The translations under genes and the position numbers were made by a program. DNA of 58,929 nt, the filler included, from an uncultured bacterium (GTDB taxonomy: Bacteria; DAOPZR01): NCBI GenBank assembly GCA_964637655.1. It is 4 parts of 4 records of this genome, joined end to end, with 100 filler letters (N's around TTAATTAATTAA, not from the genome) between each part and the next. Parts side by side here need not be neighbours in the genome. Positions count along the whole stretch, not along the records: positions 44,387 to 58,929 come from CAZWUZ010000067.1; 3 more parts are not named here. The stretch is one strand, 5' to 3'. Every line of letters starts with the position of its first letter. Position 1 is the first letter of the stretch. Positions 24,390-58,929 of the stretch are shown here, piece by piece. Below the pieces are notes generated by a model, which had not been told where the DNA came from, ran no database searches, and saw nothing but the letters and a program-made list of their open reading frames with translations.

Positions 24390-24464
24390 TGTCCTATACC
24401 TTCCAACACCGTGTCGTGATCACCGCCAGATGCGGTTCAATTGCCGGAAACGACTGTCTGATTT

Positions 24465-24710: not shown

Positions 24711-24809
24711 CCTCCATCAGCGCAATGGTAGCAAATCCGTACACCTGCCGCAACGCTTGCAACCAAGCAACGCGTAGCAGGTCCACCTGCACATGTACGG
24801 CACGGCACG

Positions 24810-25558: not shown

Positions 25559-25580
25559 GAGCGCACCTCTCCCTGGCGGG

Positions 25581-25609
25581 AGTATACGGGGCGCGTAAAA
25601 GACTGTCAA
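25581..25609 (-). promoter_or_regulatory. Sigma70-type promoter
   Basis: Minus strand TTGACA-17 nt-TATACT. Confidence 0.7.
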
Positions 25610-25616
25610 GGATTGA

Positions 25617-25799
25617 TCAGGTGGTCGGTGGTTGCTGACGGCGGCGGGCGAGTTCGGCTTCGAGGATTTTGCGCATGTCGCGCAGGCGGCGCGAGAACAT
25701 CCCGTCCAGCGCCTGCGGTTCGAGGCGCAGCAGGACATCGGTCAGGGCCTTGAGTTCCGCCTGCGGCTCCATGCTGTTCTTATCGGCCGGTTCGGGCAT
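25617..25799 (-). CDS. Small hypothetical protein
   Basis: 60-aa ORF with GC3-rich codons between a terminator and a promoter. Confidence 0.45.
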   Translation of the reverse strand: MPEPADKNSMEPQAELKALTDVLLRLEPQALDGMFSRRLRDMRKILEAELARRRQQPPTT

Positions 25800-44386: not shown

Positions 44387-44947
44387 CTTAGTGAATGTTC
44401 CTAAATGCTTTTCTGTTTTTGAATCCCAGAACAACTGAAATATCACATAAGCAGATTCTGGTTTTCCAAAACAGGCAGATGCCGTTCTGTGAAGCAGTTG
44501 GTACGGCAAATCCAGATATCCCTCGGCGCAAACACTCGAATATGGTTTTATGATGCTTATCCAATGCTCAAGAACACCCCGCCTGTTTTCACTATCACTT
44601 GTTTTCAGCCATTCTCCGATCGCTTCATATTTACTCTTGGCATATTCTGTGTATTTCGCTTCGATGGCGATTTTGCTTTTCCCCGTGATAATCATGACAT
44701 CCGACATTGATGATTTATTCTTTGGGGTCGATTTTGTTGGATATTCGAAGTACACATCGGCGTTTCCAGACCCTATGCCCAGTTCTTTGTCTATTATGCC
44801 CAATACCTTTCCTGTATTCTTCCAGTATTGCGCCAAAGGTACTGAAGAGGTTCGGATTGAATTGATTTTAGTTCCCGAGTAATAATCCAGTATCGATTCA
44901 TAGTCAGAACATTTTGGATTTCCCCAAAACACATTATTCAGTTTCAT
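44387..44947 (-). CDS. PD-(D/E)XK-fold nuclease-like protein (DUF6946-like), 3'-truncated
   Basis: FEY...SDVMI...IEAKYTE...YQLLHRTASA; low GC. Confidence 0.65.
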
Positions 44948-45025
44948 ATCTCCCCCTTTGGCGCATAACATAAACAGTGTAACATAAACAGTATCCGCGC
45001 TCAATATCATGCGTCATCAATGCTG

Positions 45026-45310
45026 TCATAAGTCGTGCATGGCTCTCAGCCGGCTGACCCGCCCGTTGCCTGCCGGCACCTGCGACAACAGTGTCTGCCA
45101 TAAAAGCGTGTTCACTCCGCCGGCTAACGCCCTGATGCATTTCGCCCAACCGGCAACCGGATCCGTGAAATGCGGATTGCGGTCATCGTACAGCAGGAGC
45201 CAACAGCATTCTCATCGAGTTCGTATGTTTCCGCGATAGTGTAAACCATTTGATATCCCGACCACAGCGAACACGTTTACGGTGAGAGCGGTGGCTGACC
45301 GGGGATGTTC
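45026..45310 (-). pseudogene. Decayed copy of the 3' third of gene 46435-47310
   Basis: Aligns with 46435-46720. Has an in-frame TAA (45277-45279) and a 1-nt deletion. Confidence 0.85.
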
Positions 45311-45366
45311 GATTAGCGCTCCGGGCGCAGCCGTTGGGCGGTGCCCAGCAGCGCGAAGTCGGCTTT

Positions 45367-46320
45367 TTACTCGAGGTTTTCATAGATCGTATTGATTACA
45401 TCGCCGACAATATTCTTAACCTTCTCTAATTCGATATATGCATAGACATCGTCATGGTTATGGGTAATTGTTTGGTATTTCCCGGCCAGTATTTTAAATA
45501 TTTTCTCCGAAGATCCTTCTGAACAAGGTTGAAATATTGCTTTGGGAATGGAAATGTTTGCTGTCTGAATCTGCCGCAACCCTCGTTGAGAGATCCATAT
45601 CGCAAAGCGTTCTGAAGCGCCGATAATATGGATAGCGATGCGTTTTTTTCCTCCTTTAATCTTCGCAATGGTTGACAAGGTTTCGACGCTTTCCAGAATG
45701 TTTTTCACTGACAATTTATCTTCTTTAAATGACTCGATTTGAGTATTCAGCCTTTCAACCGATGAGGACTTTATTTGATCCGGTTCTGAATCGTGGGTAG
45801 TAATGGTATACAGCACGTCATCGCCCAGGCAGAACTTGTTTATGGTGACAATCTTTATCTCTATTGTTTTCGTTTCTAAAAAGGTGACGAGCCGGTGCAA
45901 TTGGTGATGAACTTTGTCGCATACAATGATCAGAAGAGGTTCTTCGTCCTCGCATTCGCGGACGTCATTTGGCGAAACCTCGGGCGATAAAAACACCCAT
46001 CCCTTGGATTGCTTTATCTGTGAAAGATATACGGTATAGTCGAGAAGTTGTGCAATGATTTTTCTTCGGATTCCTTCATTGCTGATGATTTTACATTCGA
46101 CGAGTATGATTCTTCCTTCAGAATCAAGCAGCACGAAATCTGGCCTACCGGAATCCGTTTGGATTTCCCTTTTGTAGGCGACAATTTTGTTACCGAGTAA
46201 TCTCTTTTCGCTTCTAATCAGGTGTTCCAGGAGTACCTGGAGTGATTTCTCATCATCGTAAGCGGACGAGACTATGCGTGTCACTTCTGAATTATTAAAC
46301 CGGTAAAGATTCGTTTCCAT
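45367..46320 (-). CDS. NucS/RecB-like PD-(D/E)XK endonuclease
   Basis: EKSLQ...REIQTDSGRPDFVLLD...LVECK...AQLLDY; low GC. Confidence 0.75.
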   Translation of the reverse strand: METNLYRFNNSEVTRIVSSAYDDEKSLQVLLEHLIRSEKRLLGNKIVAYKREIQTDSGRPDFVLLDSEGRIILVECKIISNEGIRRKIIAQLLDYTVYLSQIKQSKGWVFLSPEVSPNDVRECEDEEPLLIIVCDKVHHQLHRLVTFLETKTIEIKIVTINKFCLGDDVLYTITTHDSEPDQIKSSSVERLNTQIESFKEDKLSVKNILESVETLSTIAKIKGGKKRIAIHIIGASERFAIWISQRGLRQIQTANISIPKAIFQPCSEGSSEKIFKILAGKYQTITHNHDDVYAYIELEKVKNIVGDVINTIYENLE

Positions 46321-46434
46321 TTGCTGCTCCCCTTTCGAAGTATACCATTTGACCTTCCAGAAGTTTTGGACATCTCACGCCAACGTGCCGGCGGTTGCAT
46401 CTCCTGACGCCAGTTCGAAGTGTCAGCAAGGCCG

Positions 46435-47310
46435 TCATAAACCGTGCTTCGCTCGCAGCCGGCTGATTCGCTGGTTGCCTGCCGGCACCTGCGACAATAG
46501 CGTCTGCCACGACAGCGTGTTTAATCCAGCGGCCAACACCTTGATACGTTCCGCCCAGCCGACAGCCGGATCCGCAAAATACGGATTGCGTTCATCGTAC
46601 AACAGAAGCCAAGCGGCACTTTGGTCGAGCGCGTATGTTTCCGCACAATTGTGGAACAGTTGATAACCCGACCACAGTGGACACGTTTGCAGGGAGAGCG
46701 GTGGCTGACCGGGGATGTTCATGACCCGCACTGCCGTTTCCCAGTAGCGGGCGCCGGTTGCACGATTCCTGCCCGGGGTTGCCATTGGACAGCCGAAATA
46801 CTGATCTGGACGAGCCCACCAGGTCCCATCGCAGCAGCCATCCGCGGGATACTTGCATGGGCTGAACCCCCGTTCAGTGAATTTTGCCTCAATAGTCAGG
46901 ATAACACGCCCATCCGGAGAGCGAATGATTCCGTCGAATTTTGTCCGGCCGTCAGTCACTTCTTCGAAAGCAATCGTGCAGTCGGAAACCACACGTTCCG
47001 GACAGAGAAGGTCAAGTCGCCCGCACTCCATAAGCACGCCCAGCACTTCAACAAAGAGTGCTTGCGATGACCTTGGGCTGTAGCAATGGTCCTGCCATGC
47101 ATCTGCAGGCATCCGGTCAGCTATCGGGCCAATACGTTCACGCATAAGCACAGCGCGTTCCGCGGGCGTCAATGCGCGCGAACGCGGGTGCCCGTTCGGG
47201 GCAACATCCGGATGTCCGCACTCCTGCCACAACCGGTACAACGTCTGCATATACCGCGCGTATGGCTCTTCTACTGTCTGGTCGATTTCTTTCGGAGTCA
47301 TCAGTTGCAT
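46435..47310 (-). CDS. PD-(D/E)XK-fold nuclease-like protein, Cys-rich (PGN_0703-like, tentative)
   Basis: SSQALF, TKFDG, IEAKFTE, RYWE, TCP and YQLFHN. Confidence 0.7.
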   Translation of the reverse strand: MQLMTPKEIDQTVEEPYARYMQTLYRLWQECGHPDVAPNGHPRSRALTPAERAVLMRERIGPIADRMPADAWQDHCYSPRSSQALFVEVLGVLMECGRLDLLCPERVVSDCTIAFEEVTDGRTKFDGIIRSPDGRVILTIEAKFTERGFSPCKYPADGCCDGTWWARPDQYFGCPMATPGRNRATGARYWETAVRVMNIPGQPPLSLQTCPLWSGYQLFHNCAETYALDQSAAWLLLYDERNPYFADPAVGWAERIKVLAAGLNTLSWQTLLSQVPAGNQRISRLRAKHGL

Positions 47311-47355
47311 CTGAACACCTCTCCGCTTGTATCAAAGATAGCACAATGCAGAATG

Positions 47356-47381
47356 AAGTCCAGCGTGCTGGAAATATCCCG
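47356..47381 (-). repeat. 26-bp element, inverted copy of 49904-49929
   Basis: 24 of 26 positions identical; lies upstream of a nuclease gene in both cases. Confidence 0.8.
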
Positions 47382-47425
47382 CTATAACCTGCATTGCATG
47401 CCGTTGCCTTACGGGCCAATGCATT

Positions 47426-48190
47426 TCACTCGACCTGCCGCTCAACATACCATGCGTCATCACGGTTGAAGCGTGTCAGATACCCACCCTGCATGTACCA
47501 GATCGACAACTGCGCATCGCCAGGTGCCGTAATTTCCGCCAGCCATGCCTGCACCTCGTCGCGGGTGAGCGCCAGTTCGCTATTGGCAATCAGCAGGCAC
47601 TGGACAGGCGCGCCTTCATGGCGCAGTTTATTGAGATCGGCCCGGGCTGCGGCGCGCATTTTCCTGAGCAGCGCGCCCCTGCTTGCCGCCGACGGGTTAT
47701 GGCCATGCAGGTCGTACTTCTTGCAGAGTTGCGCAAAATGAAAGTGCTTCACTTCTGCCATCGCCAGGTAGCGGGCGGCGCTCTCCGTGCGGCTGATATA
47801 GAAGCGCACCCGGGCATCCTTGTTGACCGCAACGGTATAAGGATGTTTCGCCAGCCAGGCGGGGTCGAGCAGCGCAAAATCTACGCTCCCGCTGGTCCAC
47901 CCGCGGTCTTCCCCGGTCTTCCGCCTGCCATACAAATGCAGCGCTCGCACAAATCCGTCGTCCCGCCGATAATGATTGATGGTTGCGTACTCGTTCAGCA
48001 GCGTGGGAAACGGAACGCCACCGAGCGTCGGTACCACGTCCGGCAAGTCCGTCGCCGCCACCCGCAGAAGTTGTGCGAACCGGTTATGCAGGTGGCGTTC
48101 TTCCAGCCATATTGTCGGCTGCCGGCAGAATTCCTCTGCCAGCGCCAGGCATGCACTCCGCATAATAGCTGAGCATCCCGGTGAGTTCAT
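47426..48190 (-). CDS. PD-(D/E)XK-fold nuclease-like protein
   Basis: ERHLH, EYAT, VDFALL, AEVK and DLNKL; similar layout to 52742-53350. Confidence 0.6.
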   Translation of the reverse strand: MNSPGCSAIMRSACLALAEEFCRQPTIWLEERHLHNRFAQLLRVAATDLPDVVPTLGGVPFPTLLNEYATINHYRRDDGFVRALHLYGRRKTGEDRGWTSGSVDFALLDPAWLAKHPYTVAVNKDARVRFYISRTESAARYLAMAEVKHFHFAQLCKKYDLHGHNPSAASRGALLRKMRAAARADLNKLRHEGAPVQCLLIANSELALTRDEVQAWLAEITAPGDAQLSIWYMQGGYLTRFNRDDAWYVERQVE

Positions 48191-48327
48191 GACAAGTATC
48201 TCCTCTGGTCAGTATTCCCGCGTTCCGAAACAAGCAGCATCTTCACCATCGACCATATAAAGGCCGCCAGGAAAACAACCTCGTACACCAGGCGCAGGAT
48301 TGTCCGCCGCATCGGGCTATATTCCAT
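48187..48327 (-). CDS. Small single-TM peptide (46 aa)
   Basis: MEYSPMRRTILRLVYEVVFLAAFIWSMVKMLLVSERGNTDQRRYLS. Fills the gap between the MBL and nuclease genes, with an ATGA overlap. Confidence 0.45.
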   Translation of the reverse strand: MEYSPMRRTILRLVYEVVFLAAFIWSMVKMLLVSERGNTDQRRYLS

Positions 48328-48330
48328 TCC

Positions 48331-49689
48331 CTATGCCGCTTCATGCCCGTCATCATTTTTCGCTTCCTGTTCTCCACTCGCCTGCCACACTTCCCCGTTG
48401 CGCAGGTGCCGGACCGGGCGCCCGAAAACTTCCATCTGCGTTGCCGCGGTCGTGTGGATGGGAATCACCTGCTTCGGCTGCATGGTCAGCACCAGGGTGC
48501 GCAGCGTCGCGCTGTCCGCATGGCCGCTGGTGTGACAGTGCCGCACCGTCGTCCCCTGCTGCTGCAGGTACTCGACGAACTTCCGTGACTGTTCCTCCTT
48601 GAGATAGCCGTCCCAGAGCGAGTAGATCAGCGTGCTCTGGCGCAGCCACTCCGGGTCATTCTCGCGCAGCAGCGCCGCGAGGTCTTTGCGCATCGAGGTA
48701 TGCACCGTCATCAGCACGTTCTTACGCTTTGCCAGGGCTGCGCGCTTCAACTGCACCCGCCGATACTTGAAAACCGTCGCGTCGAGCCCCAGTTCCTCCA
48801 CCTTGCGCCTGGTGATTGCCGCGGGGTAATAGACCAGGAGATTGAGGAAGGTGCCGCAGAGCGGGTCGGGCACACTCTTATGATGCTGATGCACCAGCGA
48901 GAGTTTCAGCGCGGTGTGCAGGTCAACCACCATGATGCGCCCCGACTGCTTCGCCGCGCTATACAGACTGCAGAGCCGGTCGATATTCTCCGATGAAACC
49001 GACACCAGCACCGGCCCCTCCGTCTCCCTGCAGATGCCCGCCAGTTCCTTGCGCAGTTTCAGTTCGTGCAGGCAATCGCTGCCGCGCCCGAGATTCGTCC
49101 CCTCGGTGATGAGGGCGTCCGGGCGGCGGCGCACCGTGCGCAGGAAGCGCTCGAAGAGGTTTCCCTTGGTCCCGTGCCTACGGAAGTCACCGGTGTAGAT
49201 AACGCGTTCACCGTTTGCCTCGATTTCGAAGGCATAGGCCTCGCACGCGGAGTGGTCCATGGCGTATGGCGTGATGGTGATATCGCCGATGAGCAGCGGC
49301 TGCTGGTCGCGCAGCAGGTTATAGGACGCGATGGTCAGGTTGCCGCGCGCCTCAATTAGTTCTTTCGTCAATGCTCCCGCGCAAACCGTGATGCCCGGGT
49401 CGGCATACTGCAGGAAACCGAAATGGTCGCCATGCGGATGCGAGATGAATACCGCATCGACCCGCTGTTGCTCTCCGCTGCCGGTATACAGCCCCGGCAC
49501 ATCCGGCAGCACTCCCTCCTGCACCAGTTGCTGCGCGCTCTTCCCTTTCAGGATGCGCGCATCGAACTTGCTGCCGTCCGCGGCGAGCAGCGGCATCCCC
49601 ATATCGAAGATGAGTCGCGTGCTCTCTGTGCTCACCTCCACGCAATTACCGCCGATTTCATTCGTCCCGCGATGGATACAAACCTTCAT
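48331..49689 (-). CDS. RNase J-like metallo-beta-lactamase / beta-CASP hydrolase
   Basis: EIGGNC, HPHGDH, DHSA, YTGDFR, EGT, HTSGHA and PIH; strong SD. Confidence 0.88.
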   Translation of the reverse strand: MKVCIHRGTNEIGGNCVEVSTESTRLIFDMGMPLLAADGSKFDARILKGKSAQQLVQEGVLPDVPGLYTGSGEQQRVDAVFISHPHGDHFGFLQYADPGITVCAGALTKELIEARGNLTIASYNLLRDQQPLLIGDITITPYAMDHSACEAYAFEIEANGERVIYTGDFRRHGTKGNLFERFLRTVRRRPDALITEGTNLGRGSDCLHELKLRKELAGICRETEGPVLVSVSSENIDRLCSLYSAAKQSGRIMVVDLHTALKLSLVHQHHKSVPDPLCGTFLNLLVYYPAAITRRKVEELGLDATVFKYRRVQLKRAALAKRKNVLMTVHTSMRKDLAALLRENDPEWLRQSTLIYSLWDGYLKEEQSRKFVEYLQQQGTTVRHCHTSGHADSATLRTLVLTMQPKQVIPIHTTAATQMEVFGRPVRHLRNGEVWQASGEQEAKNDDGHEAA

Positions 49690-49719
49690 GTTCTCCTCCT
49701 TTTCCTTCCTCTTTCCTGT

Positions 49720-49749
49720 ATATACTCCCGGCCTCGCCACCGCGTTGCA
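49720..49749 (-). promoter_or_regulatory. TGCAACG-N17-GTATAT motif (ECF-like promoter), copy 1
   Basis: Lies about 30 nt upstream of the MBL start codon. Confidence 0.65.
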
Positions 49750-49903
49750 ATATTCTGCAAAATGCCGTATATCGGTATAATTCTTCTGATGTCGCTTTTT
49801 GTAGCGATGTACGCCGTACCGCCTTCCCGGCCAAACCAGTGCCGCTTATGCGGTCCGGATTCCATACGACCGACCGACCAATCATGCTTTTCGCGCGCAA
49901 TAT

Positions 49904-49929
49904 CGGGATTTTTCCGGCACGCTGGACTT
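49904..49929 (+). repeat. 26-bp element, inverted copy of 47356-47381
   Basis: CGGGATTTTTCCGGCACGCTGGACTT followed by TATACT. Confidence 0.8.
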
Positions 49930-49994
49930 ATGGCAGTTGTGCGGTATACTCATCTCAGATACAGTCAGTACACTTCACCGCAAGGAGGATCACC

Positions 49995-50681
49995 ATGAGA
50001 TTCCCACAGCAATCCGACAGCCGCGGCAGTTTGCGCAACATCCAGTTGCTCATCAACCATCATCCCAAGCTCATCAATGAGGAAATCCGTAAACAGGTTC
50101 AGGATTGCATCACCATCGAGTGGGTGTCCCCGCTGTCCGCCGACGATCATGCCGAGTATCGTGACGCGGAGTTTATGCAGGTGCTTGGCCTCGGCAAAAA
50201 GGGCGCGGAAATGCCATTCCCCCTGCATGAGTTCTGGCCTAAACTCGGCCCGCAATGGGATGCCCTGGGCAGAACGAAACCGCGTCAGGGAATCTTCCTC
50301 GTCGAAGCGAAGGCGCATCTCGCCGAACTTGTCTCTTCCCCCTGCCGGGCCTGCGGCATGTCAAAAGAGTTGATCATGGACTCGTTCGCCACAGTCAAAG
50401 ATTATCTCAGCGTCGGGGATGAGGCGGACTGGGCCGGGCGATTCTATCAGTATACCAACCGCCTGGCGCATCTCTATTACCTGCGCGTGCTGAACCACAT
50501 CGACGCCCGTCTTATTTTCGTCTACTTCACCAATGACCGGTCGGTAGCAGAACCGACGACGCGGGAACAGTGGGAGGGCGCCATCCGCGTGATGGAGGAA
50601 TGTCTCGGCATCCCCCGCCAGCACCCGCTCCGCGCATACATCAGCGATATTTTCATTGACGTTGCGGCACTGCAGCAATGA
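49995..50681 (+). CDS. PD-(D/E)XK-fold nuclease-like protein
   Basis: FWPKLGPQWDALG, LVEAKAH and YQYTNRL; AGGAGG SD. Confidence 0.7.
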   Translation: MRFPQQSDSRGSLRNIQLLINHHPKLINEEIRKQVQDCITIEWVSPLSADDHAEYRDAEFMQVLGLGKKGAEMPFPLHEFWPKLGPQWDALGRTKPRQGIFLVEAKAHLAELVSSPCRACGMSKELIMDSFATVKDYLSVGDEADWAGRFYQYTNRLAHLYYLRVLNHIDARLIFVYFTNDRSVAEPTTREQWEGAIRVMEECLGIPRQHPLRAYISDIFIDVAALQQ

Positions 50682-50813
50682 ATCGCCGACGCGGCAACCG
50701 GCCGGGCTTGCTTAACCGGTTCAACACCATCCGGGCACAGTCGGAAAGTATATGTACAGCTGCAGGGCCCGGGATTACAATCGCAACTGCTGACAAATCC
50801 GGGAGGAAAGCAC

Positions 50814-50921
50814 ATGTATCAAGCACATAATCGTGCACCTGTTGAACGTGCCCTGGTCGAGGCAATCACGCTCGTCTGCAGGAATCCGGCGTCTTCTGGT
50901 AAAGGAAAGACGACACGCTAA
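50814..50921 (+). CDS. Possible 35-aa small ORF
   Basis: GGAGG SD followed by MYQAHNRAPVERALVEAITLVCRNPASSGKGKTTR. Confidence 0.3.
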   Translation: MYQAHNRAPVERALVEAITLVCRNPASSGKGKTTR

Positions 50922-50937
50922 CAGGTGAGGGGATAGT

Positions 50938-51642
50938 ATGGGATCCTTCGGCAACGTGCTGTATGGCAGCGAGTATCATCTGCTGCGCTGGATGGGACGG
51001 CACCGGGACGAACTGAATCGGCGCCTGCTGGCCCTGTTATCCGGCAGTCACACCACCATCGAATGGCAGGACTTCCATTTTCGCGATTCCACGCTCTCAC
51101 CCGACCGTGAAATCGAGGGTATAGAGTTTCTGCAGTCACACCCGGCATATGACCAGTTGCACACAGCGTGGCAGAATGAGTGGCCGCAAACCGGGAGTGC
51201 GCAATGCTGGGACGCCATCGGACAGGCAACTGGCGGCGACGGCGTGTGCTGGCTGCTGGTCGAGGCCAAGGCCGAGTTGACCGAGTTCGTTTCCAACTGC
51301 GGGGCAACAGGTGACAGTAAACAGCGCATTAGCCGCAACCTGGCTGCTTTCCGGGAACGCCACGCGATTACGGGCACCAGTGATTGGCTCAAACGACATT
51401 ATCAATACGCCAACCGGTTATGGTTTGTCGACTTTCTTGAGCGTCATCAGATACGGGCGGTACTGGTTGAGGTATTGTTTACCGGCGATATCCCTGTGCC
51501 GGGACGCCGGATTCCAGCAGGTGCGGCGGAATGGCGCGAAGCAATTGCCGGAATGCACGATTTCCTTGGTGTTGCCAATCACGCCTGGACACAGCATCAC
51601 GTCTGCCGCCTGCTTCTTCCCGTGACTGGCGGCAATGCGTAA
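50938..51642 (+). CDS. PD-(D/E)XK-fold nuclease-like protein, paralogue of 49995-50681
   Basis: WPQTGSAQCWDAIG, LVEAKAE and YQYANRL. Confidence 0.7.
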   Translation: MGSFGNVLYGSEYHLLRWMGRHRDELNRRLLALLSGSHTTIEWQDFHFRDSTLSPDREIEGIEFLQSHPAYDQLHTAWQNEWPQTGSAQCWDAIGQATGGDGVCWLLVEAKAELTEFVSNCGATGDSKQRISRNLAAFRERHAITGTSDWLKRHYQYANRLWFVDFLERHQIRAVLVEVLFTGDIPVPGRRIPAGAAEWREAIAGMHDFLGVANHAWTQHHVCRLLLPVTGGNA

Positions 51643-51695
51643 GATCTTCTCTGCCACCGGCGCAACTTAGTGCCAGTGCCGAATCCGGCTACGGT

Positions 51696-51768
51696 CAGCG
51701 TGTCGGCCTCGTACAAGAGGAGTACCCGACCGCCACCGCACTTGGCAAGCCGCGGCGCCAGCATCGGG
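51696..51768 (+). pseudogene. Internal fragment copy of gene 52742-53350
   Basis: 64 of 73 nt identical to 52889-52961; encodes QRVGLVQEEYPTATALGKPRRQH. Confidence 0.85.
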
Positions 51769-51844
51769 TGATTAGTGCTACAGCGTATGTTCACGGGGAG
51801 AAGCAAGTGTCTGTCGCGATAATCTGATGCGGAAGGGGGTCCTC

Positions 51845-52738
51845 ATGCAATCGACCAGAATAACTGGCGGGTGGCATACGGCACAACGCAACCCGTTGTA
51901 TCGCGCCGGTTCATTGAGCGACGCGGAAGGACGTGCCATACACTGGCATTCGCCTGACAGCCCGCACTCGTCGCAGATTTTCTGCATTTCCGCGTTCGGT
52001 TCGCTGCGTGGCCTGCCGGACCGTGACCGCATCCTGGCACAACTCTTCGCCGGCATCCTTCCGCGCGGCGCAGCATGCGGTCCTTGGCATGTGCAGCCGG
52101 AATTCCACGATCCTTCCCGCCTCGGTGAGACCAGTGCCGGGCAGCCATCCGTTATTGACGTGTTCTGTCATTCCGCCGATGCTGCCGTTTGCCTCGAAGC
52201 GAAATTCCTTACTGATGCCCGGCATGGTTTTGGCGGCTGCAGTCAGTGCGGGCGCGGGTATTGCGCGGGTTATTACGGGGTAGGGTCAGACCTCAAAACC
52301 GGCACTGACGCACACTGCCGCCTTGCCATAGGCGACGGCAAGCGCACTCCGCGCCGCTACTGGGAAGCAGGACGTCAGTATTTCCGCGCTGCGGTATACA
52401 CCTCGCAGCGCAGCGGCGAAACCTGCCCGTTTGCCGGCCCGAATTTTCAATTGATGCGCAATTTTCTATTCGCCGCAAAGAGCGGGCTACCGCATTTCGG
52501 CCTGCTCGTCATCGTCCCGCGAACGCTGATGGCATCCTGCGCAGAACAGCTGGAGATATTCCATACGACCATCCTGCGCCCGGAACATCAGTCCCGGGTT
52601 GCACTTGTCACCTACGAGACTGTGATCAGCTACCTGCGTGAATCAGCTTGTGACGCCAGTAGGCAATTGGGTGATTTTCTCCGAACCGGTCTGCATGAAA
52701 CTATTCACAAAGACAGCTGTTCCCGTAAAGGAGAATAG
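51845..52738 (+). CDS. PD-(D/E)XK-fold nuclease-like protein, Cys-rich (PGN_0703-like, tentative)
   Basis: SSQIFC, SVIDV, LEAKF, RYWE, TCP and FQLMRN. Confidence 0.7.
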   Translation: MQSTRITGGWHTAQRNPLYRAGSLSDAEGRAIHWHSPDSPHSSQIFCISAFGSLRGLPDRDRILAQLFAGILPRGAACGPWHVQPEFHDPSRLGETSAGQPSVIDVFCHSADAAVCLEAKFLTDARHGFGGCSQCGRGYCAGYYGVGSDLKTGTDAHCRLAIGDGKRTPRRYWEAGRQYFRAAVYTSQRSGETCPFAGPNFQLMRNFLFAAKSGLPHFGLLVIVPRTLMASCAEQLEIFHTTILRPEHQSRVALVTYETVISYLRESACDASRQLGDFLRTGLHETIHKDSCSRKGE

Positions 52739-52741
52739 TAG

Positions 52742-53350
52742 ATGAAGATCATCGAGAACGTTATCGCTGAGTTCTGCCGCGATTTTGTCCGGCACCCGTA
52801 TTACTGCTACACCGAACACGGTATACACGCCGCATTCTACGCCAATCTTGCGACAGCGCTGCCGAATAAATATGCCGTGTGGAACGACCAGCGTGTCGGC
52901 CTCGTGCAGAAGGAGTATCCGACCGCCACCGCGCTCGGTAAGCCGCGACGCCAGCATTGGGATATCGCCGTGCTGGCCAACCCGTTGCGCCCGGTGAAAT
53001 CCCGGCCGGCCGGTGCACCGGAATATGACTACCTGCATCTCGACGCTGCCATCGAATTCTCACTGAATGAGGGAGAAAACCACCTGACCGATGACCTGCA
53101 GCGCCTCGAGCAGGCCGAGTATGTCGCCAACCCATATATCGTCCAACTCTACCGCCTGTCGCCTGCCGGGGCGCGCTTCTCCGGACGTGACCGTTCCCCG
53201 GATAGCAGCCACATCGTTCCTCTTGAATCCGTGGTTCGCCTGTCAAAGAAGTACCGTGCGACGGTATTTTACGCGCGTGCTGATGCAGCAGACAGCACGT
53301 CAAACGGCATTTGGCGTATTGCCGCGAGCCGAACGAGCACAATCAGCTGA
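52742..53350 (+). CDS. PD-(D/E)XK-fold nuclease-like protein (E-x-S variant)
   Basis: TEHGIH, KEYPT, WDIAVL, AIEFSLN and DDLQRL. Confidence 0.6.
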   Translation: MKIIENVIAEFCRDFVRHPYYCYTEHGIHAAFYANLATALPNKYAVWNDQRVGLVQKEYPTATALGKPRRQHWDIAVLANPLRPVKSRPAGAPEYDYLHLDAAIEFSLNEGENHLTDDLQRLEQAEYVANPYIVQLYRLSPAGARFSGRDRSPDSSHIVPLESVVRLSKKYRATVFYARADAADSTSNGIWRIAASRTSTIS

Positions 53351-53405
53351 TTTCTGCCTGCCTTTATCTTTCCCCCGAGGCTCTCCGCTATCCCGTGTCG
53401 CCCGG

Positions 53406-54185
53406 TCAGCAGCCACCTGGAGCGCTCATGCCGTAGCGCGCACTGAGCCATGCGCGCAGTTCATCATCGCAGGCGGCGATGATCTGCTGCCAGTAGACCA
53501 CCCTGCACTTCTGCCGCAACGACACATCGCGCAGGCAGGCAACAGTCGTTGTGTAGCGGGCGACAAGATCGTCGCGTCGTTCATCGCAAAGCAGCACATG
53601 GGCCCGGCCGTGCTGCATTGACGCGAGCAGGTTCCTGATCACCTGGTAATTGTCGTATTCTTCTCCTGCCCGGGGGAGCCGGTCGACATGAAACGCTGCC
53701 TGCAGGCCGTCGTAACTTTCCACCACTTCAGCGCGTTTGCGAGTAAAGTCGGTTTCCGTCAGTTTCGCCTCGCAGAACACGCCCGGAACAGCTAGGTCGA
53801 TTTCCGTCGCGTCTTTGCACCCGCCGGCAATGGACACGCCCGCGAGGTAGCCGAAGGTTATCTCAGACAGGTCGCTACCCAGCAATTCCTGAACACCCTT
53901 CCATGTTGCCACGCGGGGATGGCAGAAGATGTTCATGAGCAGCGCATCGCTGCTGTTTGATGATTGCATTTCTTTGGCCCCGGGGACATTCTGATGCAGT
54001 TTTTCCGTGCGCATGTGCCATTGCGGGTTGCGGGTAATGGTTTCCCATACGGTCGGATGGAATGAATCTGCCACCTTGTCGAACAGCACCGCCGAGGCAT
54101 GCGTGGCGTCAACCGGCATCGGTATGCTCTTCGCGTATGTCACCGCTGCATCCCGTATACTTTGTTTCTGCTCTTGCACGTTCAT
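53406..54185 (-). CDS. PD-(D/E)XK-fold nuclease-like protein (PGN_0703-like, tentative)
   Basis: SSDALLMNIF, TEIDL, CEAKLTETDF and YQVIRN; AGGAGG SD. Confidence 0.7.
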   Translation of the reverse strand: MNVQEQKQSIRDAAVTYAKSIPMPVDATHASAVLFDKVADSFHPTVWETITRNPQWHMRTEKLHQNVPGAKEMQSSNSSDALLMNIFCHPRVATWKGVQELLGSDLSEITFGYLAGVSIAGGCKDATEIDLAVPGVFCEAKLTETDFTRKRAEVVESYDGLQAAFHVDRLPRAGEEYDNYQVIRNLLASMQHGRAHVLLCDERRDDLVARYTTTVACLRDVSLRQKCRVVYWQQIIAACDDELRAWLSARYGMSAPGGC

Positions 54186-54203
54186 TGTGCACCTCCTGCC
54201 GAC

Positions 54204-54233
54204 ATATACGGCCAGGAACACGCAGGCGTTGCA
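54204..54233 (-). promoter_or_regulatory. TGCAACG-N17-GTATAT motif, copy 2
   Basis: Upstream of the start at 54185. Confidence 0.65.
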
Positions 54234-54256
54234 TTTTTTTCACCTTCAGCGTTGCC

Positions 54257-54286
54257 TGCAACGCCTGTCCAAACAGACGAGTATAT
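54257..54286 (+). promoter_or_regulatory. TGCAACG-N17-GTATAT motif, copy 3
   Basis: Upstream of the FlhA-fragment gene, back-to-back with copy 2. Confidence 0.65.
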
Positions 54287-54351
54287 ACGTGGAGGAGAAA
54301 GAGACAAAGGCAAGAACAGCGCTATGCGCGCCTCATCAAGAGGGGGATTGT

Positions 54352-54813
54352 ATGGCTGACGCGAGAAAATTAAACGAATGGCTCACGGATGAACTGGAAA
54401 TATCACTCAGTCCGCTGCTGGTACTGCTGGTCGATCACGATGCCGGGGGCGACCTGCTCGAGCGGGTAGTGCGGATGCGGCAAGCCCTGCAGGATATCCT
54501 GCTGCACGATGTTCCGCCAATCCGCATACGCGACCGCAAGGAACTGCACCCGCATGAATATGCGTTCCACTTCAACGGCCGGTTGCAGGGGAGCGATTTC
54601 GCGTATCCTGACCGGTTGCTGGCCTCGGGCACACCACAGCAGCTTGCCGGCCTGCACGGCAAGGCCGTCGCGCATCCCGTCACCGGCACCCCGGGCGTGT
54701 GGATTGCGCCCGGCGAGCGTATGCGGGCCGTTCAGACGGGCTGCACTGTCGAACCCCCGTCAGAACTGATTGTCAGCCATTTCCAGTCAATCTACGAAGC
54801 AGAGAGCCACTAA
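54352..54813 (+). CDS. Stand-alone FlhA/FHIPEP cytoplasmic-domain fragment
   Basis: LEI...LVD..AGGDLLERV..MR....VPPIRIRD..L.P.EY...PDRLLA...PVTG.PGVWI...G.TV...IVSH matches the FlhA cytoplasmic D1-D2 pattern. No TM domain. Confidence 0.75.
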   Translation: MADARKLNEWLTDELEISLSPLLVLLVDHDAGGDLLERVVRMRQALQDILLHDVPPIRIRDRKELHPHEYAFHFNGRLQGSDFAYPDRLLASGTPQQLAGLHGKAVAHPVTGTPGVWIAPGERMRAVQTGCTVEPPSELIVSHFQSIYEAESH

Positions 54814-54839
54814 CAGCATCCGCCCGTCAAGGCGATTTC

Positions 54840-55541
54840 CTATTTTCGCGGCGGCATCTGATTGGCGTTGAGCAGGCAGATGCTGGCCTGCTGTTTCAGC
54901 CATTGCCGGAATTCCTTGGCCGCCGGGGTGCCGACGGTGCCGATCGCTTCGGCGATATCCTCCCAGGTCAGGACAAAGGTCGGGATAATGGTCCCGCCGT
55001 CGGTTGCAGCATTGCGTTCAAGCCAGTCGCAGAGGCGGTTCAACTGCGAACCTTTCTGCCGGCGTGCCTTGGCATTACTGACCGCTTGCCACTTCTTTTC
55101 GGCAACGACAAGACAATGGCCAGCATGGTCGATTGCCTGGCTGGCCTGTATCCCCTCAACCCGCTCAATTTCCAGCAGGATATCCGCGCAAAAACTCCAG
55201 TCGGTATTGGCTTTTGCTTTGATGGTCAGCAGGGTATTCCCCTTTTGGTTCCATACCGCGACATCACAATACTCACCCGCATCTGTTTCCGCCCGAACAA
55301 TGTCATGGAGGTTATTATCAAACGACACCACCAATTTTTCGTCAGCCGCAAACAGGCCGGACAGGTCTTCGGCAACACCCACGGTATCCGGTAGCACCTG
55401 CTGCAACCGGTTACGCACCTGCAGAAAGCTTTTCGTCCATTCGGCATCGCTGAAGATTGCGGTGAACACCTTGGCATACAAATTTCGCTCGTCCCGATTC
55501 CAATTTGAAGGATGCCGCGGATTCGTTGAGAAAGTCGCCAT
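54840..55541 (-). CDS. PD-(D/E)XK-like protein with K in place of the catalytic E
   Basis: ERNL...EYCDVAVW...LLTIKAK...LTWEDI. Confidence 0.55.
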   Translation of the reverse strand: MATFSTNPRHPSNWNRDERNLYAKVFTAIFSDAEWTKSFLQVRNRLQQVLPDTVGVAEDLSGLFAADEKLVVSFDNNLHDIVRAETDAGEYCDVAVWNQKGNTLLTIKAKANTDWSFCADILLEIERVEGIQASQAIDHAGHCLVVAEKKWQAVSNAKARRQKGSQLNRLCDWLERNAATDGGTIIPTFVLTWEDIAEAIGTVGTPAAKEFRQWLKQQASICLLNANQMPPRK

Positions 55542-55672
55542 GATACAACCTCCTTTGCCGTCAGTTTTTTACCTGTCTGCAACCATAACGCAAGGGCAGC
55601 GTGCTCCAGTTCATGATCATGCGTAATCGTACATATTTTCACTTGTTACTGCAATTACACGAATTCGATGAT

Positions 55673-58015
55673 TCACGCCCCGCATCCTGTCACTGACTTG
55701 AGGAAGTAATCGCTCTCGGATTCTCGCCGCTCCTGCCATGCCCGGGCATAGGCCTCGGGATGGTATGTGTTCAGCCAGGCGGTGCGATACGCCAGCAGTG
55801 CATACGCAACGCCATGAGCCTTGCACTGAACCCATGTGCTTCTCTGCGCAAGGTATTGGAACATACCGGCAAGTTGCTCGTGAGCTATGCCGTTCTTCAT
55901 GCCACAGGCGATAAACTCGTCCCTTATGTCGGTCTGCTCCCTGTCGCCATGGCGCAGTTTTTTCCGAAACTGTTCCGCTGCAAGCAGGGAACTGCCCATC
56001 AACCGCGCCAATACCTGTATCAGTTGCTCCCGGTAGATAAGCACACCGTTCGTTTCCGCCAGTTCCATGGCGATGGCAGGATGACCCGGAGCGATGACAG
56101 ACCCGCCACACATCTGCTGCAGGCATTTGTTGGTTGTGCCGTTCGCCAGCAGTTCACTCCGTTGCAGCGAGATGAACGCAGCCAGTTCAGTGAAATTGCG
56201 TGGCGGGTACAAGGCCAGGTATTCTCGGGCCTGTTCTGCACCAACCAGAAACACCCCCTCGGTGCACGTCGTCGGCAGAGCGCGATAGACCTCCGCATCA
56301 TCCGGCGATAACGACCTCAATTCCTCGACGCTCATTCCGATTTCAGCAAGGCAGCGCCTGATTGCCGTCAGGGTTGTTAGCGCCAGCACGTTGACATTCA
56401 CCAACGCCAGCGGATTTTCATTGACCTTTTGCAGGTGTTCGAAGCAATCCCGGTCGTAGTGGAGCACCCGCTCTCCGGTTTCACGACAGCGTAATGGCAC
56501 GATTTCAGACAACGTACGCCCGGCAATGACATTGCTGGAATGCCAATAGGTCGTGCGGCGCACTATCCCCTCAAGGCGGCAGGCGTAATCGATCCACGCG
56601 CGCAGATGTTCATCAGCGCCATTGGCAATTGCCGCACACTGCGGCACGCTGATGACTGCTTCCGGTAAACGCATGCCTGCCGGGATTGCTTTCGCCACTT
56701 CCCCGGCAATCTCCGTTGGGACTCCCATAACCTTCGCGACATCACGCAGTATCTGTTTGGACCTGTTGATTGTCCGTGCCGACATGTGCGCCACCCGGCT
56801 ACACCCGTATAAGTTGCTAATCGTGTCGAATACTTCGTCATGCCGGGCCGCGTCAACATCAATATCAACGTTTGGCAGCCCATTGCCTGCCAGGAATTGT
56901 TCGGGCTGCAGGCCATAACGCAGCGGGTCGATTTCCGTGATGCGCAGCAGATAATTGACGATGCTACCGCCTGCGGCACCCCGCCCCGGCCCGACCAGTA
57001 TCCCCCTCCGGCGCAACGCCACAACAATATCCTTTACCATCAGCAGATAGCCGGCGCCGGCAGCACTGAGCATTGCCAGTTCCTGCTCGAAACGCTTTCG
57101 GGGTGCCGGTTCATTATCGACGTACAAGCGCGGCAGCTCCTCCAGGCAGAACGCACGTAGCGTGGCAATGCTGATATCTGCATGCGATTTATCCGGCTGA
57201 GGCATTACCCGATGAACCCGGCAGCGCTCTGCAATAGTTGTCGTGTTTGCTATTGCCTCTGGCACATCGTGGAATAGCTCATGCATTTCCGCCGCACTGC
57301 GCAGATGGTAGGTTCCGGTTTCCGCACGACATGCAACGCCATCAAGCAATGCGTAATGAACCGGTAACAACGCGTTATCATCCGGTGTTATGCAGCGGAC
57401 GATAGCAGCAGCCACCAGCGGGATGCCCGTCCGTTCATGCAGGAAAAGCAACCCGGCATTCATGTCCTGTTCGCCGGGCACGCCATTGCGCGTCATTTCG
57501 AGATAGAAATCATCCCTGCCGAAATGATCGCGATATGCCACCGCTGCTGTTTCCGCCGCTGCCATGTTGCCGTCGAGGATATGCCGCGCCACCTCGCCAC
57601 CAAGGCCGCCGCTCAGGGCAATCAGTCCTTCGGCATATTGTTGCAATACCCTGCGCCTGACTACCAGACGTTCCCCGCGTACCAGATTGTCTTCGTGCGA
57701 TACCAGTTGTAGCAGGTTGGCATAGCCGGTCGCATTTTCCACCAGCAGTACCAGGGTCAGGGTTTCTCCGTTTGGCGCATCCATCACCTGCACTTCGCAG
57801 CCGGTCAAAACATTGATCCCCGTTTCGACCGACTGCTGTGACAGGATAAATGCGCCATGGAGATCACCGGTGTCAGTCACAGCGATATGGCCCATCCCCT
57901 GCGCTGTCACCGCCTGCAGCAGTGGCCCTTTCTCACCCGGTTTACCCACACGGCATATGCCGCGGTACGGTGAATATTCCGTCTGCACATGCAAATGCAC
58001 TATGCTTTTCTTCAT
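55673..58015 (-). CDS. Degenerate, C-terminally truncated DNA polymerase III alpha (DnaE)-like protein
   Basis: HLHVQTEYS, GCE, GYANL, VGPGRG, ITEIDPL, DID, IYREQ and KAHGVAYALLAYRTAWL. About 780 aa, with catalytic motifs altered. Confidence 0.85.
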   Translation of the reverse strand: MKKSIVHLHVQTEYSPYRGICRVGKPGEKGPLLQAVTAQGMGHIAVTDTGDLHGAFILSQQSVETGINVLTGCEVQVMDAPNGETLTLVLLVENATGYANLLQLVSHEDNLVRGERLVVRRRVLQQYAEGLIALSGGLGGEVARHILDGNMAAAETAAVAYRDHFGRDDFYLEMTRNGVPGEQDMNAGLLFLHERTGIPLVAAAIVRCITPDDNALLPVHYALLDGVACRAETGTYHLRSAAEMHELFHDVPEAIANTTTIAERCRVHRVMPQPDKSHADISIATLRAFCLEELPRLYVDNEPAPRKRFEQELAMLSAAGAGYLLMVKDIVVALRRRGILVGPGRGAAGGSIVNYLLRITEIDPLRYGLQPEQFLAGNGLPNVDIDVDAARHDEVFDTISNLYGCSRVAHMSARTINRSKQILRDVAKVMGVPTEIAGEVAKAIPAGMRLPEAVISVPQCAAIANGADEHLRAWIDYACRLEGIVRRTTYWHSSNVIAGRTLSEIVPLRCRETGERVLHYDRDCFEHLQKVNENPLALVNVNVLALTTLTAIRRCLAEIGMSVEELRSLSPDDAEVYRALPTTCTEGVFLVGAEQAREYLALYPPRNFTELAAFISLQRSELLANGTTNKCLQQMCGGSVIAPGHPAIAMELAETNGVLIYREQLIQVLARLMGSSLLAAEQFRKKLRHGDREQTDIRDEFIACGMKNGIAHEQLAGMFQYLAQRSTWVQCKAHGVAYALLAYRTAWLNTYHPEAYARAWQERRESESDYFLKSVTGCGA

Positions 58016-58070
58016 CTTGCCCTCAGCCATTTGGACCGTCTTATGCTCCTGAATCAACCGCCTCTGTTTC

Positions 58071-58190
58071 CTATAGTAATGGCCAGCAGGCGCTTGGGGC
58101 GGCACGAAACACCAGCCATGCGCACAGCACAATATTGGCGACGAATTCGATGCCAATGGGCGTGTAGTTGATGTGTTTGAGCATTTCCAT
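58071..58190 (-). CDS. Small hydrophobic peptide (39 aa) upstream of the DnaE-like gene
   Basis: AGGAGG SD followed by MEMLKHINYTPIGIEFVANIVLCAWLVFRAAPSACWPLL. Confidence 0.5.
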   Translation of the reverse strand: MEMLKHINYTPIGIEFVANIVLCAWLVFRAAPSACWPLL

Positions 58191-58218
58191 GATCGCCTCC
58201 TGTCCGTACTCTATGGAT

Positions 58219-58248
58219 ATATACCGTCACCGGGCGCCTGGCGTTGCA
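58219..58248 (-). promoter_or_regulatory. TGCAACG-N17-GTATAT motif, copy 4
   Basis: Upstream of the small peptide and DnaE-like genes. Confidence 0.65.
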
Positions 58249-58268
58249 CACAATTTCTTGCCGCCTGT

Positions 58269-58298
58269 TGCAACGAATCCCGCCTGAGGGGCGTATAT
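58269..58298 (+). promoter_or_regulatory. TGCAACG-N17-GTATAT motif, copy 5
   Basis: Back-to-back with copy 4; points to the remnant at 58370 and the gene at 58530. Confidence 0.6.
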
Positions 58299-58369
58299 TG
58301 CCTTAGAGACCGGGCGATCTGCAGTAATATCTGTCAATAGTACTACCGGATCACGTCGTTGCTTGCGGT

Positions 58370-58477
58370 GCAATTGCCGCCGAGGGGACTCCGGCAGCCA
58401 GGGAATTCCAGCAATGGCTGAAACACCAGTCCGGCATCTGCCAGCTCGGTTGCAGCCAGATGCCGCCAAAGAAATGA
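58370..58477 (+). pseudogene. Inverted, diverged copy of the C-terminus of gene 54840-55541
   Basis: Encodes AIAAEGTPAAREFQQWLKHQSGICQLGCSQMPPKK*, versus AIGTVGTPAAKEFRQWLKQQASICLLNANQMPPRK*. No in-frame ATG back to the upstream TAA at 58325. Confidence 0.8.
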
Positions 58478-58529
58478 GATAGCACGTGGAGCAAAACAAC
58501 ACGCGCGTACAAATTCAGGAGGATTGCCA

Positions 58530-58904
58530 ATGAGTGTATTCAAGCCAAAGAGTGGAGAAACAGTAGCGACAGGAAATGCGGAAATGCGCGCAGCAGCATT
58601 GCTCACCGATGAACGTTTGCGTCAGTGTGCATTCTGCCCGGCTGCCGGTGAGGATTATCAGACACTGCAACGCCTGGTTGAACGCCATGCAGACATTATC
58701 TACCTCGACATCGAGATGCAGTATCTGTTCAACGCGTATGGTGCTGAGTCCATCGGCGGATATCGGGTCATCCGGCGGGAATTGACAACGCTTGACGTCG
58801 TGTCAGGGCGCAACAAAAACTGTGACAGCGAGTACATTGCTGCCATTGATCAGAAGATCCAGAAAACGTATTCACCTGATCTCCGGCCCGTTTTTATCCA
58901 CTAG
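58530..58904 (+). CDS. Hypothetical protein
   Basis: AGGAGG SD; 124-aa ORF. Confidence 0.65.
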   Translation: MSVFKPKSGETVATGNAEMRAAALLTDERLRQCAFCPAAGEDYQTLQRLVERHADIIYLDIEMQYLFNAYGAESIGGYRVIRRELTTLDVVSGRNKNCDSEYIAAIDQKIQKTYSPDLRPVFIH

Positions 58905-58929
58905 GCTCTTGATTCCTGCCATAGTATAG

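Follow-up and report, generated by a model that had tools for sequence, protein, structure and literature searches.

Gene content and composition of the piece

The DNA analysed here, referred to as the window, is a 58,929-nucleotide stretch from an uncultured bacterium (GTDB lineage Bacteria; DAOPZR01; assembly GCA_964637655.1) in which four contigs are joined by spacers of N, and our subject is the fourth of these pieces (44387..58929, 14543 bp; CAZWUZ010000067.1). It carries 14 open reading frames (ORFs; g01–g14) separated by intergenic gaps of 3–493 nt, all of them nucleases, fragments or unknowns with no housekeeping context, and among them are a series of PD-(D/E)XK-type nuclease genes, a gene for a β-CASP metallo-β-lactamase (MBL), a truncated DnaE-like gene and a stand-alone piece of FlhA. 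Scans with Pfam, NCBIfam (g01–g10), PADLOC (PADLOC-DB 2.0.0, the 2023 library) and PHROGs matched no methyltransferase, helicase, integrase or cas family among the 14 ORFs, in agreement with a preliminary description of this DNA, which had reported none. The same library scans found no replication, transfer or phage structural gene, tRNA and Rfam scans of the piece gave no match, and no repeat array is present. A cognate methyltransferase could nevertheless sit outside the piece because its left end is cut, a truncation that had been noted before and that removes the C-terminus of g01.

The piece also departs from the rest of the window in composition. Its GC content is 55.7%, against 63–68% for the remaining pieces, which hold ordinary genes (amidohydrolase, FecR, glycosyltransferase and radical SAM), and its tetranucleotide correlation with them is 0.78–0.86, a poor value compared with the 0.93–0.95 seen among the three large pieces themselves. 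Within the piece, g01 and g02 have a GC content of 41% and the remaining genes 51–62%. Because GC content and tetranucleotide profile both deviate, the piece is either foreign DNA or a doubtfully binned contig. The fit of the contig to its bin, which the preliminary description had queried, is thus poor by tetranucleotide profile, and its placement is doubtful; the picture of a nuclease-rich, methyltransferase-free and compositionally foreign piece is borne out.

At least seven genes of predicted PD-(D/E)XK type

Ten ORFs had been proposed to carry a PD-(D/E)XK core, six of them with an EAK motif followed by a [YF]Q helix. The six hexamers were recovered as exact matches in g01, g03, g06, g07, g08 and g10, and the strict motif that they define, D..EAK..[YF]Qxxx[RN], is thereby present in 6 of the 14 proteins, compared with a mean of 0.007 and a maximum of 1 in 2000 shuffles. 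A looser motif, in which D..(E/K)x(K/S) follows a pair of hydrophobic residues, is found in 10 of the 14 proteins; since shuffled sets average 5.5 and reach 10 or more in 1.15% of cases, this motif is weak evidence when taken alone. Seven of the ten proposed genes (g01, g02, g03, g06, g07, g08 and g10) have support beyond the motif, and on this count the predicted PD-(D/E)XK genes of the piece number at least seven and represent no fewer than four families.

Three of them belong to a single Pfam family, REase-ARP (PF22558; gathering cut-off 27 bits), and retain D..EAK in each case: g03 (46435..47310, minus strand; 1.6e-12, 48.1 bits; YQLFHN), g08 (51827..52738, plus strand; 2.1e-12, 47.7 bits; FQLMRN), which ends 3 nt ahead of g09, and g10 (53406..54185, minus strand; 5.8e-28, 98.7 bits). 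The best-conserved gene of the piece is g10, with 4898 relatives (the best 60% identical), and D130, E139 and K141 are invariant in a 24-sequence alignment of its family. A hidden Markov model (HMM) made from this alignment matched neither g03 nor g08, and a genome search with g08 as the query gave 0 matches in 301 genomes. The cut gene g01 (44388..45010, minus strand; YQLLHR), whose start may be an internal Met near 44947, encodes a DUF6946-type protein (PF22187; 3.9e-7, 30.1 bits against a cut-off of 27; profile positions 59–150 of 214) and also matches REase-ARP under its cut-off of 27 (0.0018, 18.4 bits). Pfam places DUF6946 in clan CL0236, PD-(D/E)XK, according to PMC10584680. The adjacent g02 (45367..46320, minus strand) is NucS-like with a PD..ECK motif; it matches the PADLOC candidates PDC-S11 (1.1e-13), PDC-S18 (2.8e-11, residues 4–223) and PDC-S26, and NucS_C at 0.016, under the cut-off. 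A mapping of the cluster to already described systems had been raised earlier as a possibility, and in the PADLOC scan g02 alone gave matches, all to candidate entries, whereas the other 13 proteins had none.

The next pair, g06 (49995..50681, plus strand) and its paralogue g07 (50938..51642, plus strand; 31% identity over 199 amino acids (aa), E 9e-19), represents a large unnamed family, most of whose members are about 225 aa long; it comprises 1747 cluster representatives at E<=1e-3 and has no Pfam model. We modelled g06, which carries WD..EAK..E..YQYxNR, with AlphaFold2 (AF2) from a 39-row alignment (predicted local distance difference test (pLDDT) score 95) and compared the model with solved structures using VIA-align, in which the top rows were BstEII (Z 7.4), the Upx C-terminus (6.8) and NucS (6.5), all below the caution line of Z 8. 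Further rows included cap-snatching endonucleases, SfsA, the Avs3 N-terminus, PaqCI, Cfr10I, Card1 and Can2, and most of the 50 rows were restriction-type nucleases, while Foldseek returned no match in the PDB at E<=0.1. The restriction-endonuclease fold expected of this protein thus came up below the caution line in one structure search and was absent from the other. Because all Z values lie below 8, the fold call leans on the consistency of the match list together with D89, E104 and K106, conserved at 90–100% in the family alignment, and on this predicted model the g06 family can be called restriction-endonuclease-like and nuclease-associated. A relation between the g06 and g10 families was considered and not found (profile–profile probability 0.3%). 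In 10 long members of the g06 family that were scanned, an N-terminal Exo_endo_phos domain was fused in three and DUF429 in one (P0395, P0398, P0414, P0497).

The other genes of unnamed families are less clear. Directly downstream of the MBL gene lies g04 (47426..48190, minus strand), with the motifs RHP..TE..LH, EYPT, G.DFALL and AEVK, and motif alignments suggest that g09 (52742..53350, plus strand) is its distant paralogue, in which EFS replaces the ExK of the relatives. Both share RHP..TE..LH, EYPT, G.(F/W)D(I/F)A.L and (I/A)E.(K/S) with two ORFs from metagenome loci (L126, 2196–2954, and L085, 6452–7372), and the L126 ORF is the top phmmer match of each; compared directly by BLASTP, g04 and g09 gave a non-significant E of 0.14. 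For g04, the AF2 model (4-row alignment) reached a pLDDT of 48, there was no Pfam match, a genome search yielded 1 borderline match in 301 genomes, and a scan of viral contigs with the single protein gave none. Thus, of the paralogue sets named in the preliminary description, g03/g08/g10 share a Pfam family and g06/g07 are clearly related, and for g04 and g09 a status as PD-(D/E)XK paralogues is plausible from their motifs.

Downstream of the DnaE-like gene lies g12 (54840..55541, minus strand), which carries the loose motif only. Compared with related contigs from landfill, 19 of its 25 listed differences fall at third codon positions, and when each change is scored by itself, 16 are synonymous and 9 non-synonymous; judged by its substitutions, g12 is a real protein-coding gene. 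It had no Pfam, PADLOC or PHROG match and was found in 0 of 5 and 0 of 401 genomes searched. Atlas look-ups placed g04 and g12 in unnamed clusters, with the named clusters PDDEXK_4 and RE_HindVP scoring <0.9, below threshold. The last ORF, g14 (58524..58904, plus strand; 126 aa), matched nothing in the libraries scanned, and g04, g06, g07, g09, g12 and g14 all lack matches in Pfam, PADLOC and PHROGs.

An MBL nuclease that elsewhere follows a PD-(D/E)XK-motif gene

The MBL gene, g05 (48331..49689, minus strand), encodes a protein of about 434–450 aa of the EF2904 (PDB 2az4) type, without the RNase J C-terminal domain. It matches Lactamase_B_2 (6.1e-10) and RMMBL (3.4e-6), both above their cut-offs; its best solved match is Enterococcus EF2904 (PDB 2az4, 1.2e-13), and its closest relative is 41% identical. 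H84, H86, D88, H89, H146, D168, H386, H390 and H412 are invariant in the alignment of the MBL family including g05, which by its residues is predicted to be a catalytically intact β-CASP MBL nuclease. RNase J models gave 87.1 bits (TIGR00649, cut-off 400) and 59 bits (NF047419 RNase J1, cut-off 820), and since 87 bits falls so far below 400, g05 is not RNase J but RNase J-like, as the preliminary description had called it.

To place g05 in context, we examined the best 80 of 563 metagenome places at which members of its family occur, of which 63 had at least 700 bp upstream. In 60 of these 63 the upstream ORF lies on the same strand and in 49 it abuts the MBL gene within 60 nt; 47 of the 49 carry D..hhExK, against a background of 37 in 227 other ORFs of 150–400 aa. 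BLAST sorts these upstream partners into at least seven clusters, and their Pfam hints are weak (YhcG_C 6.6e-7, PDDEXK_9 0.008, DUF234 0.05). Weak phmmer matches of g02 are enriched among the partners at the −1 position, and HMMs of the partner clusters matched the island proteins only in g02, weakly (1.7e-4 to 0.15). Relatives of g06 adjoin the MBL gene in 2 of the 80 loci (L145, L120), and a relative of g04/g09 lies directly downstream of it in L126, in the position of g04 here, with another in L085; a prediction of a g05–g06 complex scored 0.02.

The wider neighbourhood of the family was tallied with Pfam for 150 ORFs, taken nearest first from 180 eligible. The top non-repeat family was DNA_pol3_alpha with four members, followed by WYL/WCX with three and AAA, rve, GIY-YIG and Fic with two each, and ankyrin proteins and AAA+ ATPases were also among the company. 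Several arrangements stand out as individual observations. In L120 (4306–7950), a 1214-aa DUF6079 protein, a BrxC-like ATPase whose winged helix is of the BrxC type, is encoded four genes downstream of the MBL and g06-like pair. In L106 (2073–4534), the MBL carries an AAA+ ATPase as a C-terminal fusion, which Pfam confirms, and phmmer matches indicate an MBL–AAA+ fusion in L128 (1201–4176) and L103 (1487–3407).

On plasmids, MBL relatives were found in 11 of 72,556 records. A Rhizobium plasmid (L162, 5516–8230) and a Sphingomonas plasmid (L163, 4973–8201) carry the gene as the middle member of a trio with two hypothetical genes, and the Rhizobium trio adjoins an Eco57I-type methylase and a GIY-YIG nuclease, with a MobF relaxase gene 3 kb off. 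Elsewhere, several of the island families sit in variable, defence-like neighbourhoods that include WYL/WCX, GIY-YIG, Fic, integrases, a BrxC-like ATPase and an Eco57I-type methylase.

Truncated DnaE-like and FlhA genes

The DnaE-like gene of the piece is g13 (55673..58030, minus strand; the ORF extends to 58156, giving an open frame of 786–827 codons), whose product has the PHP, palm, thumb and part of the fingers of DnaE, as seen from the Pfam PHP, DNA_pol3_alpha and finger domains. It aligns with residues 5–785 of Escherichia coli Pol III alpha (1e-90) and stops near E. coli residue 800, after the fingers, so that clamp-binding HHH_6, OB and tau-binding/C-terminal domains are all missing from it; no DnaE C-terminal remnant was found nearby. 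Of the catalytic triad, E. coli D401 and D555 are replaced by N and D403 is kept, which agrees with the earlier designation of this gene as a dead DnaE. Compared with 5.8 billion proteins, its sole close match was the window's own protein and the next was 34% identical, and a scan of viral contigs with g13 alone gave no match.

Truncated DnaE-like genes also recur beside the MBL. We found them in 4 of the 80 MBL loci (L139, 806 aa; L141, 794 aa; L104, 690 aa; L156, 355 aa), and all four end at the same point as g13; the Asp triad is kept in L139 and L141 and lost in L104, L156 and g13. Among 12 viral loci of the MBL family, one contains a DnaE-like stretch of 20% identity at a distance of 1.3 kb from the MBL gene. 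The MBL-centred and DnaE-like modules recur together elsewhere. In L139, a ClpB-D2-like AAA protein precedes the truncated DnaE. L141 holds a tight operon (1566–11197) of an AAA ATPase (671 aa, two-domain), an ankyrin protein (764 aa), a FliG middle/C-terminal fragment (248 aa; FliG_C 2.5e-34), a truncated DnaE (794 aa, with an intact triad), a D..ExK protein (272 aa) and the MBL. In a quick DnaE tree the truncated forms were long-branched; g13 joined L104, a grouping that carries a long-branch warning, and L139 joined an ordinary DnaE with 99% support. The tree hints at more than one origin of the truncated forms.

A second gene related to a host protein, g11 (54352..54813, plus strand; 153 aa), matches FHIPEP (2.5e-22, profile positions 258–467 of 657) and FlhA chains of the PDB (1.7e-14). 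It corresponds to the linker and the cytoplasmic D1–D2 domains, residues ~346–497, with no membrane domain and no D3–D4, in line with the FlhA fragment noted before. The similarity to FlhA starts at the ATG at 54352 (FlhA residue ~346), and a start at this codon fits the two indels that a landfill relative carries directly upstream of it.

Turnover of genes and absence of a conserved gene set

Three pseudogene remnants lie in the piece. The first (45013..45310, minus strand; 298 nt), between g02 and g01, is the 3' third of a g03 paralogue, 81% identical to 46422–46720, with an in-frame stop and a frameshift and a translation that matches the g03 C-terminus. The second (51691..51768, plus strand; 78 nt), ahead of g08, derives from a g09 paralogue, of which it keeps 26 codons (..VGLVQEEYPTATALGKPRRQH), and is 86% identical to 52884–52961. 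The third (58370..58490, plus strand), inverted and ahead of g14, holds the C-terminal ~30 codons of a g12 paralogue (GTPAAREFQQWLKHQ.. compared with GTPAAKEFRQWLKQQ.. in g12) and forms a 121-nt inverted repeat with 54827–54947, 73% complementary.

Related populations were sought in sequencing runs, and where no contig of a given run covered a region of the piece, that region was excluded from interpretation. Near-identical sequence occurs in four wastewater runs, all from one study and possibly including the source, and sequence of 90–99% identity in two landfill runs of a separate study; no RNA run is among those listed. Landfill contigs bridge g08–g09, g10–g11, g11–g12 and g12–g13 at 90–99% identity, and other landfill contigs diverge into unlike sequence at 48060, 49597, 50890, 52857 and 54399. 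In one landfill contig, the intergenic region between g12 and g13 (55544–55648, 103 nt) is swapped for 107 other letters with both genes kept. The remnants, the mixed GC content and these strain variants argue for cassette turnover.

A 30-nt element with the palindrome TCCAGC-AC-GCTGGA occurs twice, at 47356..47385, 46–75 nt upstream of the g03 start, and at 49900..49929, 66–95 nt ahead of the g06 start; each copy is oriented alike with respect to its gene. The copies differ at 3 of 30 positions, and 100 shuffles gave 0 matches. Since orientation and distance to g03 and g06 are alike, a shared promoter or operator fits the element better than the ends of a mobile cassette, which we set aside for the same reasons. 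No regulator gene was seen on the piece to accompany this putative shared operator.

We then considered the best 80 of 514 confirmed genomic places of the g10 family, mostly in Acidobacteriota, with flanks of up to 10 kb. When these were compared with the 14 island proteins, g10 was present in 80 of 80, g13 matched DnaE in two and g11 gave one antisense artefact, and no other island family lay near g10 relatives in any of the 80. Clustering of 416 neighbouring ORFs from 77 loci (three were left out as they had no ORF over the match) gave a largest cluster spanning 7 of the 77, and no neighbour family is conserved across g10-type loci. Four genomes with g10 relatives contain 1, 1, 2 and 2 REase-ARP matches, against three within 14.5 kb here. 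Similarly, the whole island set appears in 0 of the 80 MBL-family loci, where only pairs recur. The co-occurrence that the preliminary description had looked to therefore exists for particular pairs, namely the MBL and its motif-bearing partner (47 of 63 loci) and the truncated DnaE beside the MBL (4 of 80), and not for the ten-gene set. Elsewhere in the window, the second, high-GC piece contains a stretch of 48–58% GC (22784–25738) with three ORFs of 326, 181 and 181 aa and no Pfam match.

Interpretation of the locus

On balance, the piece is probably a horizontally acquired, fast-turning-over fragment of a defence-type island, in which nuclease cassettes have accreted and which is not one ten-gene machine. 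We distinguish three units: an MBL-centred one (g05 with g04, facing g06/g07), a DnaE-like one (g13 with g12, perhaps g11) and solo nuclease genes (g01, g02, g03, g08/g09 and g10). The g05, g06 and g10 proteins retain every invariant residue of their families, and the neighbourhoods described above suggest that the island holds an undescribed MBL-centred module whose function would be read from its context. In such a setting, the PD-(D/E)XK proteins would nick or cut foreign DNA and g05 would degrade the resulting ends, and self DNA could be spared without a methyltransferase if the nucleases recognised modified DNA, free ends or replication intermediates, or if they became active only in response to a trigger. 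For the dead DnaE copy without its clamp-binding part and for the piece of FlhA, the most likely role would be that of non-catalytic subunits, serving for binding or as bait, that link a phage or plasmid cue to the nucleases.

Several observations weigh against this interpretation. Thirteen of the 14 proteins match no PADLOC (2023) model at E<=0.01, so the label "defence" comes from context alone, and no integrase, transposase or tRNA on the piece flags a mobile element. Viral contigs (IMG/VR) seldom hold the island families, with 4 loci for g06 and 12 for the MBL in 2.9 million. The PD-(D/E)XK label of the MBL partners is a reading of a motif and weak HMM hits, that of g04 and g09 a reading of family motifs and that of g12 of the loose motif. 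In the island itself, g05 has no abutting upstream partner of the usual kind, and g13 is 6 kb from g05 rather than adjacent to it. Of the nine listed differences in g11, five are at third positions, and the gene could on this account be an inert remnant. Finally, the 30-nt element shared by g03 and g06 hints at co-regulation, which would fit a common system better than accretion.

The island may be mobile-element cargo. A rival reading takes this further and sees the whole piece as cargo of a plasmid, integrative element or prophage caught up in competition between mobile elements or in host takeover, with the nucleases as addiction or exclusion genes and the DnaE and FlhA pieces as dominant-negative inhibitors of replication and flagellar export. 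The foreign composition of the piece would suit such an origin, as would the MBL relatives found on 11 plasmids, in one case at 3 kb from the MobF relaxase gene, the small number of IMG/VR contigs that carry MBL and g06 relatives, several of them close to a contig end, and the rve integrases among MBL neighbours; the long DnaE-like branches, with L139 grouping with one ordinary DnaE, would fit repeated capture from hosts. Yet the piece has no replication, transfer, integrase or phage structural gene of its own, 72,556 plasmid records and 2.9 million viral contigs yielded just 11 and 12, respectively, with an MBL relative, and the quick tree is prone to long-branch effects, so that we regard this account as unlikely.

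Somewhat less likely again is that the locus is decaying junk, in which the DnaE-like and FlhA genes are functionless leftovers and many of the small ORFs dying copies. The three clear remnants agree with decay, as do the missing C-terminal third and two missing catalytic Asp of g13, the S that g09 has in place of the motif Lys and the lack of a clear third-position bias in g11 (5 of 9). Against it, g13 maintains an open frame of 786–827 codons despite identities of at most 34%, the DnaE-like genes of four loci end identically beside the MBL, two of them with an intact Asp triad, and no C-terminal DnaE remnant lies nearby; moreover, differences in g12 are mostly synonymous, g11 begins exactly at the linker/domain border of FlhA with its own ATG, and the invariant residues of g05, g06 and g10 are all in place.

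The proposal of the preliminary description, that ten nucleases, the MBL and two host-protein mimics form one coordinated battery against differently modified DNA, is improbable, because, for all the tight packing (gaps of 3–493 nt), the palindrome-bearing element shared by g03 and g06 and the g10–g11–g12–g13 and g08–g09 junctions kept in a second habitat at 90–99% identity, the set is found in 0 of 80 g10-family and 0 of 80 MBL-family loci (only pairs recur), the genes differ in GC content (41 to 62%), the piece holds three paralogue remnants, related landfill contigs part at cassette borders and no modification-reading domain was found in the library scans.

Within the preferred reading of an accreted defence-type island, the idea that host-protein mimics serve as sensors or decoys gains some weight because truncated DnaE-like genes recur beside the MBL, in one operon together with a FliG fragment. 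We can extend it, speculatively and with low confidence, to undescribed immune modules in which an EF2904-type β-CASP MBL and a variable PD-(D/E)XK protein recruit shortened, often dead host proteins as baits: DnaE cut after the fingers, FlhA D1–D2 here and the middle/C-terminal part of FliG in L141. The role of these baits would be to sense factors by which phages or plasmids attack replication or the flagellar apparatus, as a bacterial analogue of integrated decoys. Among the papers listed in our literature searches, we found no report of an MBL–PD-(D/E)XK module or of DnaE decoys in anti-phage defence.

If the reading from context is true, the pair of a PD-(D/E)XK-motif protein and an EF2904-type MBL, seen in 47 of 63 informative loci and absent from PADLOC 2023, deserves a test in defence; the unnamed g06 family, with its 1747 representatives, gains an annotation as restriction-endonuclease-like; and the clamp-less DnaE beside nucleases, together with flagellar pieces in two loci, offers a testable case of host-derived sensors or decoys. 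If it is false, this contig of doubtful binning amounts to a patch of orphan nucleases and the debris of genes.

Comparison with known systems

For types I–III restriction–modification, the cognate methyltransferase was not found in the 14 ORFs of the piece. Type IV restriction enzymes are methyltransferase-free and modification-dependent, and the island shares with them restriction-type folds and the lack of a partner methyltransferase on the piece, but it differs from them in that no modified-base reader domain (SRA, YTH-like) and no GTPase or ATPase motor was detected on the piece. Shedu-type nucleases are single-gene PD-(D/E)XK defence proteins, and Shedu and SduA chains are within the weak fold matches of the g06 model, although no PADLOC Shedu match is listed for any island protein.

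Among named families, g03, g08 and g10 score above the cut-off for REase-ARP and g01 above that for DUF6946, with the D..EAK core and the [YF]Q helix kept. Our literature searches yielded no member of either family with a tested function and no paper on "REase-ARP" or "PF22558", and the meaning of ARP was not found in them. The PADLOC entries PDC-S11 and PDC-S18, which g02 matches, are candidates and not proven systems.

The two proteins that resemble host proteins can be compared with their full-length counterparts. Like DnaE, g13 has PHP, palm/NTPase and finger domains in the normal order; unlike DnaE, it is without clamp-binding, OB and C-terminal domains, has Asn at D401 and D555 and shares at most 34% identity with other proteins. 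The cleft between D1 and D2 of FlhA is the docking place of export chaperones, and g11, which comprises these domains, differs from FlhA in lying outside any flagellar operon, without the membrane domain or D3–D4.

A β-CASP MBL nuclease also serves as an immune effector in type VII CRISPR-Cas, as Cas14, as reported in PMC13069675, whereas the piece studied here is without a cas gene or repeat array. With RNase J and EF2904, g05 has in common the HxHxDH motif, the further H and D and the β-CASP His residues; in contrast to the housekeeping context of RNase J, its family is usually encoded as the second gene behind a PD-(D/E)XK-motif gene.

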